Positions 1 through 20,607 of a stretch of DNA of 28,867 nt are shown piece by piece (position 1 is the first letter of the stretch; each line of letters opens with the position of its first letter). Source of the stretch: an uncultured Chitinophagaceae bacterium (GTDB taxonomy: Bacteria; Bacteroidota; Ignavibacteria; UBA10030; UBA8401); contig CAYXEE010000001.1 in the NCBI GenBank assembly GCA_964463935.1, forward strand, positions 2,581 to 31,447. Reading direction: 5' to 3'. A model generated the notes under the pieces. The model worked only from the letters and a program-made list of their open reading frames with translations. It was not told the DNA's origin and ran no database searches. The position numbers were made by a program, and so were the translations under genes.

Positions 1-146
1 TTGTTTTTGTTCCGCTGCTTGAAACTTCTAAATTATAGTATGTAATCGGGTTAATGGTTTGCGCGGCTGTTCCATTAAATTCTATTGTTGTTACATTTGT
101 TGTTGCATCTGCGCTTGCGCCGGAAATAGAAAGCGTTCCTGCAATT
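1..146. repeat. Direct repeat, copy of 1941-2086
   Basis: Ungapped alignment by eye gives 10 mismatches in 146 nt, and the first 55 nt are identical. Confidence 0.9.
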
Positions 147-523
147 TTAGTTGTTCCGCTTGAAAATGTTTTTGTTCCGCTTGTACTAAGCGCGAGATGA
201 TAGTAATTTACTCCGGCTACGGATTGTGCGCCCGACCCATAATATTCAACTGTTCCTGAAACAGAACTAAATGTTCCACCGTTTGTAAAATTGCCGGTAA
301 TATTAATTGCTCCTTCGTTTGCAATGGTTCCGCTTGCGTTGTTTAAATCGCCGATATTGTTTATTACCGTTCCGCCGGAAACAGTAATTACTCCGCCGTT
401 GTTTGAAATAACCTGAGCGGAAATATTCTGAATGTTTAACAGAACAAAAAACAGAACGGCGGCGCTTTTTGTTACAAAGCTGCTGCGCTGTTTTTGTATT
501 ATTTTTATTGTTCTGTTAAACAC
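1..523 (-). CDS. Secreted beta-solenoid/T9SS-cargo-like protein, 3' end truncated by the window edge (not in the ORF track)
   Basis: Manual translation from GTG at 523 gives (M)FNRTIKIIQKQRSSFVTKSAAVLFFVLLNIQNISA|QVISNNGGVITVSGGTVITNIGDLNNASG...TIEFNGTAAQTINPITYYNLEVSSSGTKT, open to base 1. It has a signal peptide with Gln at +1 and the same repeat unit as the giant protein's C-terminus. Confidence 0.85.
   Translation of the reverse strand, partial: MFNRTIKIIQKQRSSFVTKSAAVLFFVLLNIQNISAQVISNNGGVITVSGGTVINNIGDLNNASGTIANEGAINITGNFTNGGTFSSVSGTVEYYGSGAQSVAGVNYYHLALSTSGTKTFSSGTTKIAGTLSISGASADATTNVTTIEFNGTAAQTINPITYYNLEVSSSGTKT
433..522. repeat. Inverted repeat with 15-bp perfect arms (433-447 and 508-522) and an imperfectly palindromic 60-bp interior
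   Basis: TGTTTAACAGAACAA at 433-447 is the reverse complement of TTGTTCTGTTAAACA at 508-522. Inner partial arms AAAAACAG/CTGTTTTT and TTTGT/ACAAA are also present. Confidence 0.9.
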
Positions 524-568
524 TATACAATGGATATTTTTTAGAAATAATTTATGTACTATTTTATG

Positions 569-1636
569 TTACGGTACAAATGTTCCCACGTTACCCGATG
601 CTAATCTTCTCACCGTAAAATAACTGCCTCGCAATGGAGTAACCGTTCCGGCGCTGCTTGTAATTCTTAACCGTATATTGCCGGCGGTTCCACATTCTGC
701 AACGGCGCGAATTACAACTTTATGATTTACCGCTGTTGTTAACGATGCGGTAGCCGGAAGAGCCGCTGCCGCTGCGGTTACTCCAACAATACCGGCGCCT
801 GTTTGTGCGGCGCTTGTAGCAATGCCGCCCGCGGCGCTTTGTACATATTGAGCAACAATATTGTTGTAGGTTGCTGTGTTTGTTATTGTGTAAGTAACGG
901 TTCCTGCTGTAGTTTTCAGAAAAAAAAGATAAAATGTAAGCTCGTACACGCCGTTTGTTACCGTTGGAATTGCGCTGTTTGCACCGAAGAAATCAGCTAT
1001 CGCAGGACCTATCGCAGAACCGTTTGCCGTTAATCGAAAAATTTGTTGATTCGATTCTTGAGTTCGTCCGTTCGTTGCATCTACAGTGAGATAAAATGCG
1101 TTTCCATCAAATTCCATCGCTCCCGCCGCGGGCGTTGTTAAATTTGTTCCGCTGGTAAAAGTCAACGGGTCAACGGTAGCAGTTCCTGCAGCTAATGTTG
1201 TTCCGGTAAGTGTCGGCGATGCGCTGAAAACCAAATTTGACGAAGTTGTTCCCGTTGTTCCCGTAGCAGCATTTAAATAATTTAATTGCGTCCCTGTAGA
1301 TGTCATTGATGTTGCGCCGAGCGTGAACGGAGTTGGAATTGTTACAGTTCCGGTAAAGGTCGGCGATGCTGTAGGCGCAAGCGAGAGCCAGCTTCCGTTG
1401 TAAAAATCAACTGTGTTTGTTGTACTATTATAGAGCGTCATTCCAAGCGTTGTAATTGCATCGCGGTTTATTGATGTTAATCGCGGAAGCAGCAAACCTC
1501 GCGTTGTTGATCGCAATTCCAAAATCGCCGAAGCATCGGGAGTGATTGCGCTTTCGCTGATTCCGACTCCCTGCGCAAAAAGCTGCGATGCGGCAAACAG
1601 CGCTGTTGTAAACAATAACGATTTTATTTTTTTCAT
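569..1636 (-). CDS. Secreted fibre-like protein (355 aa from MKKIK; the ORF track extends it to 1672)
   Basis: Signal peptide MKKIKSLLFTTALFAASQLFA|Q, then the Bacteroidota-type motif GVGI...TPDASAILELRSTTRGLLLPRLT, then Thr/Gly-rich segments (LVFSASPTLTG, PLTFTSGTNLTTPAAGAMEFDG) reminiscent of phage tail-fibre shafts. Confidence 0.8.
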   Translation of the reverse strand: MKKIKSLLFTTALFAASQLFAQGVGISESAITPDASAILELRSTTRGLLLPRLTSINRDAITTLGMTLYNSTTNTVDFYNGSWLSLAPTASPTFTGTVTIPTPFTLGATSMTSTGTQLNYLNAATGTTGTTSSNLVFSASPTLTGTTLAAGTATVDPLTFTSGTNLTTPAAGAMEFDGNAFYLTVDATNGRTQESNQQIFRLTANGSAIGPAIADFFGANSAIPTVTNGVYELTFYLFFLKTTAGTVTYTITNTATYNNIVAQYVQSAAGGIATSAAQTGAGIVGVTAAAAALPATASLTTAVNHKVVIRAVAECGTAGNIRLRITSSAGTVTPLRGSYFTVRRLASGNVGTFVP

Positions 1637-1791
1637 AGTTATGCCTATGTAATTCATTCTACCCTCTCTCACAATATTTTTTCACAGAGCGAATTGTAAT
1701 TTTTAATTGCTTCTCTACATTGCCAAAATGAAACGATAATCTTTCGCATAGAAGTCCGGCTTTAGTATTATTTTTTTTGTTATTACGGTTA

Positions 1792-18919: not shown

Positions 18920-19732
18920 GTGGATGGTTTAAAATTATTTTTTCATCAAAACAAATTTATCTATCGAACAATCATCTTTCTTTTCGCGTTTACCATCTTG
19001 CTTGCTTCTTCGGGGTGTTTTATTCTTCGTCCTGCCGCCGGAGCGAGTTACGACAAAGAACAAGTACAAAAGGCGCGCGAAGCAAAAATGATGGAAGTAA
19101 AACTGCAAGCCGCGCAACGGTTGCAAACACGGCTCGCCGATAACAAACCGATTGAAAATTCAGACTTCACTTTTTATTTCAATCAAGAATTATTTAATAA
19201 AGCCGCCGCGCAGTTGGACGGCACAATCGGCTGGCTCGATTCTCTCAATTCATATTTTATCCGCAGCATTCGCGTTACGCTGAACAACGGCTCTGCCGTT
19301 GCAACATTTAATCTTGCAGTGTTTAATCATCAGCATAATGTAAATGTGGATATGCTTATGGACTGCCTGTTAGATTTTTCAGTTGAAAACGGAAAACTGT
19401 ACGCGCGGTTCGAGCCATTTTCAATTTCTCCCGTTGTCAGCGCGTCCGGAGTTGCCGGAATATTGAACGACATTATTGCGGATATTATTGAACTAAAAAT
19501 TTCTGAGATGAGTCAGAAGTTTCCGCCGATAGAAATGCCGATTGATTTTGAAAACAAATTTCCAATTCCGCAAAATTCTCTTTCCGTTCGCAGCGGAATA
19601 AATATGGATATTTCCATTCCGGGCGCAACGCTTGCATACGGTTTGCAGGTAAAAGAAATTCTTATTTTTCACAATGCCGTAGTTGTTGGAATGAATCTGA
19701 CGAAAGCGAGCAAAGAGAGCGCAGAAAAATGA
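18920..19732 (+). CDS. Putative lipoprotein of unknown function (start GTG 18920; alternative ATG 18746)
   Basis: Hydrophobic stretch IIFLFAFTILLASSG|C with a lipobox. GGAAGG lies 5 nt before the GTG at 18920, and the ORF overlaps the next gene by ATGA. Confidence 0.75.
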   Translation: MDGLKLFFHQNKFIYRTIIFLFAFTILLASSGCFILRPAAGASYDKEQVQKAREAKMMEVKLQAAQRLQTRLADNKPIENSDFTFYFNQELFNKAAAQLDGTIGWLDSLNSYFIRSIRVTLNNGSAVATFNLAVFNHQHNVNVDMLMDCLLDFSVENGKLYARFEPFSISPVVSASGVAGILNDIIADIIELKISEMSQKFPPIEMPIDFENKFPIPQNSLSVRSGINMDISIPGATLAYGLQVKEILIFHNAVVVGMNLTKASKESAEK

Positions 19733-20607
19733 AAAATAATTTCTTTGCGCCCTTTGCGGTTAAGAACGCTTTTATTTTTCTTCTTGCATTATTTTTCATC
19801 GGCTGCGGCTATTCCGCGCCGTCGCTTTTTCCTCCGACCGAACTAAGCGTTCAAAAAATTGCGGAAATGAAACCGCAGTTGGATTCCCTTGATGCCGCAA
19901 TAAACGCGCGCGCAAAAGTTCTTCCCGCAAATTACAACAGCACAACGCGCATCACCATTGCAAGCATTAACCGCTTACTCGACCTGTTTGCACAACAGCG
20001 CGCGGACGATATTAGCATTGCATTTCTTCCTACACAACCGCTGTGGAAAGAAGAAAAAAATATTCTCGGAATTAAATACACAAATCTGGCAAACATAGAC
20101 AGCGGCGCATTTTCCATTGATATAAAAAAATTCCGCTTCAAATGGGGAATGAATAATATGCTGAATGCCGAAGTGGAGATTGAAGGAAAAGGAACAATTG
20201 CCGTTTCCGGAACGTACGCGGGAATTTCCGCTTCTGCATCGCCGCAATTGCATTGCTATCTTAACGAAAATATTCTCTTTTCCATCGCGGCAGATTCGGA
20301 ATCAATAATTTTAAAACCGCAGACAAAAACATTAACGCTGAAAGCAAAAGCGACAATGAAATTATTGCAATGGGAAATTCCGATCTACAAAGAAGTTCCT
20401 CTTCAGGCGACGGATATTATTCAGCCGATGAAACTTCCCGCCGCGCTCCGCTCGGATATTGCAATTCCGCTTCCGGCAAAAGAGTTCGGCTCCAGCAAAG
20501 TGGAATTTGTCCGCCGCACGATTGAATTTAGCAATGCAAAAGTTTCCGCAGTTAATAATGTATTGGGAATTCAAGGAAATATTTCGCTAAAAGTTCCGGC
20601 GCAGTAA
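19729..20607 (+). CDS. Putative lipoprotein of unknown function
   Basis: 292-aa ORF with AFIFLLALFFIG|C lipobox-like signal, a long beta-strand-rich body, and translational coupling to the previous gene. Confidence 0.8.
   Translation: MKNNFFAPFAVKNAFIFLLALFFIGCGYSAPSLFPPTELSVQKIAEMKPQLDSLDAAINARAKVLPANYNSTTRITIASINRLLDLFAQQRADDISIAFLPTQPLWKEEKNILGIKYTNLANIDSGAFSIDIKKFRFKWGMNNMLNAEVEIEGKGTIAVSGTYAGISASASPQLHCYLNENILFSIAADSESIILKPQTKTLTLKAKATMKLLQWEIPIYKEVPLQATDIIQPMKLPAALRSDIAIPLPAKEFGSSKVEFVRRTIEFSNAKVSAVNNVLGIQGNISLKVPAQ

Follow-up and report, generated by a model that had tools for sequence, protein, structure and literature searches.

The perfect 15-bp inverted repeat at the very beginning of a secreted beta-strand-repeat protein gene is, in our view, best explained by a structure in the mRNA. 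On the strength of predicted folds, we hold with moderate confidence that it belongs to a cis-acting hairpin of ~95 nt that would extend over the signal-peptide region as well as the start codon, and that this hairpin probably throttles translation; we do not propose that the DNA inverts. The repeat lies within a window (by which we mean the whole stretch of 28,867 nt analysed here) that corresponds to C1:2581-31447 of a MAG of 2.86 Mb (522 contigs, 86.7% complete, 39.5% G+C), contig C1 being 39.5 kb long.

The gene carrying the repeat is the third in a row of co-oriented genes, the first two of which encode a giant protein of 5,177 aa and a secreted protein of 367 aa. Past window position 1 it enters an N block on C1 (~2470-2580, ~34 codons), which is an assembly gap, and just ahead of this block window positions 1-146 are nearly identical to 1941-2086, in the C-terminal portion of the upstream giant gene. 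The N-terminus of the product is a classical signal peptide that combines a basic n-region with a core of ~10 hydrophobic residues and reads ...ISA ahead of Q; its cleavage site was inferred from the A-x-A/Q pattern common to paralogs and orthologs. What follows is a Gly/Asn/Thr-rich beta-strand-repeat protein. Its relatives, which come from MAGs of Bacteroidota and Ignavibacteriales, are “beta strand repeat-containing” proteins, and the T9SS tail domain PF18962 is present in some of them. The GTG is preceded by an A/T-rich leader with an A at -3. The features referred to below are the following (window coordinates):

2-523, minus strand: 5′ part of the gene for the secreted beta-strand-repeat protein, with its GTG at 523-521; it runs off the window.
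521-523, minus strand: GTG start codon, the sole in-frame canonical start before the signal peptide, aligning with the ATG/GTG starts of orthologs.
508-522, minus strand: 5′ arm on the mRNA, comprising bases 2-3 of the GTG, codons 2-5 and the first base of codon 6.
448-507, minus strand: segment of 60 bp between the arms, partly self-complementary.
433-447, minus strand: 3′ arm, encoding the end of the signal-peptide hydrophobic core (F-V-L-L-N region).
416-523, minus strand: signal-peptide coding region of 36 codons, with predicted cleavage at ...ISA before Q; it encloses the whole hairpin.
569-1672, minus strand: upstream, co-oriented gene for the 367-aa secreted protein, its stop lying 45 nt ahead of the GTG; syntenic loci can be recognised by its homologs.
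432-623, plus strand: mirror-image ORF of 63 aa with an ATG, beginning with the “inverted” peptide and overlapping the 3′ end of the 367-aa gene.

The last of these is probably no gene and just a by-product of the repeat, since it is the inverted repeat that places an ATG-initiated ORF on the opposite strand.

The first-pass annotation had described 15-bp perfect inverted repeats around 60 bp at the GTG start, and this description is accurate: the arms (TGTTTAACAGAACAA) are exact reverse complements, they are spaced by exactly 60 bp, and a mismatch occurs at the first base outside each end, while inwards the match can be followed over 24 nt at 88%. When codons were resampled according to the usage of the genome with the protein kept fixed, a repeat of at least 15 arose in 2 of 20,000 trials, and the longest perfect repeat (loop 20-100 nt) found at the 5′ ends of 2,213 ATG-initiated ORFs of the genome measured 12. 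The codon null and the gene-start comparison together thus indicate that the complementarity is a property of the nucleotide sequence, and an unusual one within the genome; it does not simply follow from the encoded protein. Extrapolation from the tail of gene-start repeats yields ~0.1 case of 15 per genome, a value to be read with the very large number of scanned windows in mind, among which chance repeats of such size must still turn up. Perfect repeats of at least 15 with loops of up to 1 kb number 136 in the whole genome and mostly belong to two repeat families, the 433-522 pair being a singleton. A genome search for the arm returned a one-mismatch copy on contig C2, which represents no excess over the reversed-pattern control. 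Elsewhere in the window, a lipoprotein gene (19729-20607) starts with ATGAAAAATAAT, the perfect complement of ATTATTTTTCAT 47 nt downstream (19729-19799, plus strand); the latter falls at the end of the lipoprotein signal-peptide hydrophobic core, and this 12-bp repeat is the longest one among the 2,213 ORF 5′ ends mentioned above.

The proposal that a ~90-nt mRNA hairpin gates the start codon had been put forward already in the first-pass annotation, and it gains backing from predicted folds, from null models and from analogous hairpins in related genes. Folded as RNA, 420-540 of the minus strand reaches -33.6 kcal/mol, which corresponds to a z of -6.05 and was equalled by 0 of 200 shuffles; across a background of 440 gene starts the dinucleotide-shuffle z averaged -0.15 (sd 1.19) and never fell below -5. 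With codon resampling z was -4.75, as compared to a mean of -0.45 and a minimum of -3.46 for 130 signal-peptide genes of the genome. The region 433-522 is predicted to form a single long hairpin, bulged by 13 nt on its 5′ side, in which the arms are continued by an inner helix (447-463 against 479-495, 76% over 17 nt) and then by a 5-bp apical helix. This self-pairing of the inner 60 nt favours the hairpin, because a hairpin requires internal pairing and an inverton does not. Fold energies of the sense and the antisense strand are about the same, without any consistent asymmetry, and hence the sense RNA is not singled out over a DNA-level or antisense feature.

The GTG sits within the basal helix. 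Opening the ribosomal footprint from -15 to +13 would cost a predicted 18.0 kcal/mol, and this equals the 99th percentile (18.0; mean 7.0) of 492 gene starts, a background made up of first-ATG starts of which some are wrong. We therefore picture the 15-bp repeat as the putative basal helix of a ~95-nt stem-loop in the mRNA (433-524, minus strand), which would strongly lower or gate translation initiation of the gene. Such an effect is expected since Bacteroidota ribosomes, which work without Shine-Dalgarno pairing, need an unstructured initiation region. The classical case of an occluded start codon is the initiator hairpin of the MS2 coat gene. In E. coli, structures that overlap the footprint up to +13 repress translation up to 530-fold (Espah Borujeni et al. 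2017, PMC5435973), and the present locus resembles these start-occluding hairpins in that a stable helix is predicted over the footprint from -15 to +13, at a cost of ~18 kcal/mol that falls in the initiation-abolishing range there. It differs from them in its length of ~95 nt, in spanning the whole signal-peptide region, in belonging to a Shine-Dalgarno-less genome and in having counterparts of different sequence in related genes, and it is known from predicted folds. The phylum-level translation system is the same as that in which Shine-Dalgarno-independent initiation has been studied (Baez et al. 2019, PMC6847099; Accetto and Avgustin 2011, PMC3155529); in Flavobacterium johnsoniae, mRNA structure tunes initiation with no Shine-Dalgarno pairing, and structure near the start is the main negative determinant. 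In contrast to the genome-wide trend of Bacteroidetes towards weak structure, the locus is an extreme exception, standing at the 99th percentile. If our reading is right, the kind of control is a known one in an unusual place, namely inside a signal-peptide coding sequence.

Related genes were sought in several ways. A DNA search of 40 relatives found no homologous DNA, and the best relatives returned by a protein search (5.8 billion proteins) were ~55% identical, none of them close enough to test conservation of the repeat. With the 367-aa protein as a query, metagenome loci were mostly repeat-domain matches and the genome contigs gave 3 loci only. A class-wide N-terminal profile search yielded mostly generic signal peptides along with six real distant family members. 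Orthologs were found as genes downstream of homologs of the 367-aa gene, at syntenic loci in genomes of the same family; they are ~50% identical, and their signal peptides align along the full length. The 15-bp repeat occurs in none of these orthologs, and L009 carries ACAGAA and TTGTTCTGTT at the places corresponding to the arms and nothing more of it. Several orthologs are nevertheless predicted to fold strongly in the same region. Their dinucleotide z was -6.5 for L012, -4.7 for L008, -3.6 for L011, -2.7 for L009, -4.1 to -5.5 for L114 and -2.5 for L098, and codon resampling gave -5.5 for L114, -3.9 for L009, -3.7 for L011, -3.0 for L012, -2.85 for L008 and -2.8 for the adjacent paralog of the gene itself. 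The ortholog stems differ in sequence, L012 for example having a perfect 10-bp repeat with a 61-nt loop. In the five alignable orthologs, 84.8% of cells pair in a three-tier consensus hairpin, as opposed to 40-56% in slid controls, and compensatory changes are seen at 5 pairs, a modest covariation. No hairpin was predicted for the orthologs L010 (+1.5), L024 (-0.2) and L022 (-1.6), nor for the six distant members of the family mentioned above (z -0.7 to +0.7). RNAalifold returned no common structure for nine diverse members, and the signal-peptide region of the neighbouring 367-aa genes holds no comparable structure (z -0.5 and 0.05). Since L009, L011, L008 and L099 represent one lineage, the independent cases are few (~4 of ~14).

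Our reading is that a hairpin over the leader recurs in the subfamily and is probably under selection. In the orthologs it begins a few codons downstream and leaves the start unoccluded; opening of the footprint there costs an ordinary 1.4-7.3 kcal/mol, the burial of the start codon being specific to the source genome. It follows that any function shared by the family hairpin cannot be start-codon occlusion. The perfect 15-bp helix may represent the remodelled hairpin of this one lineage, in which the ortholog version, beginning a few codons further downstream, would have been altered such that a basal helix of 15 perfect pairs swallows the start codon. As a separate observation, the ortholog signal peptide (...NISP..KS.S.L.RIA.LCFVL.M.SGE.ISAQ) shows good conservation across genomes of different families (L009:2993-3117 in G058, f1, versus L099:1645-1769 in G159, f8). 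For a leader that is cleaved off this is unusual, and it would fit either gene transfer or a constraint that acts on the nucleic acid.

A different idea, which the first-pass annotation had named first, is that of a phase-variable intragenic inverton that swaps signal peptides. On this reading a site-specific recombinase would flip 448-507 and thereby exchange the n/h-region of the signal peptide. Precedents exist in Bacteroides thetaiotaomicron, where inversion has been confirmed for a recoding segment of 57 bp (BT0375) and where thiC has a repeat of 11 bp, so that the size of the segment is no obstacle to inversion, and the present locus shares with these invertons the short intragenic repeats, the segment of ~60 bp, the open frames in both orientations and the phylum (Chanin et al., PMC10028968). 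The perfect repeat and the secreted, surface-type nature of this Bacteroidota gene product are likewise compatible with it. When carried out in silico, the 60-bp inversion keeps the frame open and gives exactly the alternative peptide that had been predicted. What we cannot uphold is the weight placed on these “two valid signal peptides”: both orientations are indeed open and signal-peptide-like, but the same 60-nt inversion applied to 573 signal-peptide-like genes of the genome leaves 55% open, so that an open frame both ways carries little weight, and 14.5% still signal-peptide-like. The reason is that A-rich polar codons are followed by T-rich hydrophobic ones, a pattern which the reverse complement repeats, because the antisense of basic and polar codons reads as hydrophobic codons. 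Furthermore, all flipped residues precede the predicted cleavage site and hence inversion would leave the mature protein unchanged; the inner segment is itself palindromic, and flipping it would not change the hairpin either.

Positive evidence for inversion was not obtained from any other side. The locus occurs, as Logan contigs, in one public run only (a subsurface metagenome, probably the source), two sister runs yielded nothing, and there is no RNA run among the public runs with the locus. The single Logan contig across it (151 nt, over 383-533) displays the reference orientation, at a depth of 2-5x with which a minority orientation is compatible as it could be missed, and at this same depth the Logan contigs contain no joints or strand changes at the locus. 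The exact repeat pair with a gap of 50-70 nt had 0 matches in metagenome contigs and 0 in species-representative genome contigs, and the motif is unique within the genome itself. The earlier remark that there is no recombinase in the window is correct and can be extended to the whole of contig C1. The genome (86.7% complete) encodes no serine recombinase and, according to NCBIfam, four tyrosine recombinases in all (XerD, XerC, one XerA/integron-like and one divergent Xer-like). Comparison of the present and inverted peptides with the orthologs was indecisive as to the ancestral orientation (protein scores 58/49, 41/44, 39/30 and 31/35), and DNA alignment of the inner 60 nt weakly favoured the present one. 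Unlike the B. thetaiotaomicron invertons, then, this locus is seen in one orientation (2-5x), has no invertase with it, and would recode a part that is cleaved off. Given the repeat-free orthologs and the lack of close protein relatives, we consider a true recoding inverton very improbable, and the same holds for the narrower proposal of an inverton restricted to the signal peptide that is cleaved off, by which export or targeting of the surface repeat protein would be tuned and its mature form left unaltered. For screens of invertons this carries two cautions: a perfect short repeat in a signal-peptide region often stays open and signal-peptide-like when inverted in silico, and hairpins of this kind readily cause strand-switch artefacts when assayed by PCR.

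The main rival that remains to the hairpin reading is a neutral origin, which we find doubtful. The repeat would then have no selected function. It would go back to a weak complementarity already present between the A-rich codons of the n-region and the T-rich ones of the h-region, which a template-switch (quasipalindrome) mutation may have made perfect; its carrier would be a single paralog, itself dispensable, among arrayed repeat-protein genes, and any effect on translation would be incidental. The partly ancestral arms, as retained in L009, are consistent with such an origin, as are the lack of conservation of the full repeat, the heavier tail of 5′ repeats in signal-peptide-like genes (at least 9 in 6.8% versus 3.5% of other genes), another signal peptide in the window with a 12-bp repeat from its ATG, and the fact that the gene has a near-identical cassette in common with the giant upstream gene and enters an assembly gap; scanning of very many windows also means that rare chance events get picked up. 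However, the codon null produces such a repeat in just those two trials, a length of 15 is three steps past the genome maximum, and independent strong hairpins in the same gene region of L012 and L114 would be hard to get from a one-off mutation. We deem it unlikely, in turn, that the structure acts on the transcript as an intra-operon RNA element, be it a processing site for RNase III or RNase E, a stabiliser of the 3′ end of the upstream mRNA or a partial transcription stop. Its position in a row of co-oriented genes, 45 nt past the stop of the preceding one, would suit this role, and in the orthologs, where the intergenic gap goes down to 12 nt, the hairpin lies outside the initiation footprint and must there do something other than occlude the start. 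Near-continuous helices of 15-20 bp, as predicted here, are also of the size that fits RNase III substrates. On the other hand, a scan of 300-1800 found 0 terminator-like sites, the 3′ arm is followed by CATTCAGAAT with no T run and thus no U-tract comes after the stem, and Rfam returned nothing beyond sub-threshold noise for the hairpin region.

Finally, it is scarcely credible that the gene start was invaded by an integron attC-type site or by a small mobile element (MITE), even though the genome is full of MITEs and the element, at ~90 bp, has a suitable size. The consensus of the R″ and R′ boxes of attC sites, which are imperfect palindromes, is RYYYAAC and GTTRRRY; the outer arm ends, GTTTAAC and GTTAAAC, match it, the overall length falls in the 57-141 bp range of attC sites, and a recombinase encoded on contig C7 resembles integron integrases. 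In contrast to attC sites, however, the present helix is an uninterrupted 15 bp with no extrahelical bases and no unpaired spacer, and it lies in coding sequence homologous to the signal peptides of orthologs. Five such sites exist genome-wide, all of them isolated, with no array and none near C7, and the C7 protein (240.8) stays under the 265-bit cut-off for integron integrases. The attC reading was thus rejected for want of a cassette array, of a bona fide integron integrase and of a spacer bubble. A MITE or other insertion was rejected as well, the segment being single-copy and without target duplication; as its signal peptide aligns with those of orthologs, it is not an insertion.

Apart from these considerations, the search revealed several elements outside the window that deserve a record of their own. 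The tyrosine recombinase gene on C7 (3523-4467) passes the XerA/integron-integrase model (237, cut-off 220) and fails the integron-integrase model as given above. A MITE family is abundant throughout the genome, for example at C7:10429-10576, C326:1465-1613 and C246:946-1093, with terminal inverted repeats ...CTGAAGTTACGCA(AAA). Its elements measure 143-292 bp (mostly 148), occur in either orientation, and comprise several internal subfamilies with common ends; 7-bp target duplications are readable for the copies on C326 (TCATTTA) and C246 (ACTATTA). The 2.86 Mb contain 322 occurrences of their 11-mer core, which probably adds to the fragmentation of the assembly. The second palindromic family is REP-like, with AAACCT[C/A]ACAGGTCTT arms and units of ~59 bp that stand in tandem on C363, and it was located at C186:64-126, C305:1529-1591, C333:1406-1468 and C363:275-653.

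A less exotic reading than a flipped segment, and one that would be novel too, is that certain secreted repeat-protein genes of Bacteroidota, forming a subfamily, may have a structured RNA element under selection across the whole of their signal-peptide coding region. Should the hairpin reading prove true, the gene described here would show clearly how, in nature, structure within a coding region can strongly occlude translation in a bacterium that does without Shine-Dalgarno sequences, and it would hint that mRNA structure is linked to how secreted repeat proteins are expressed.
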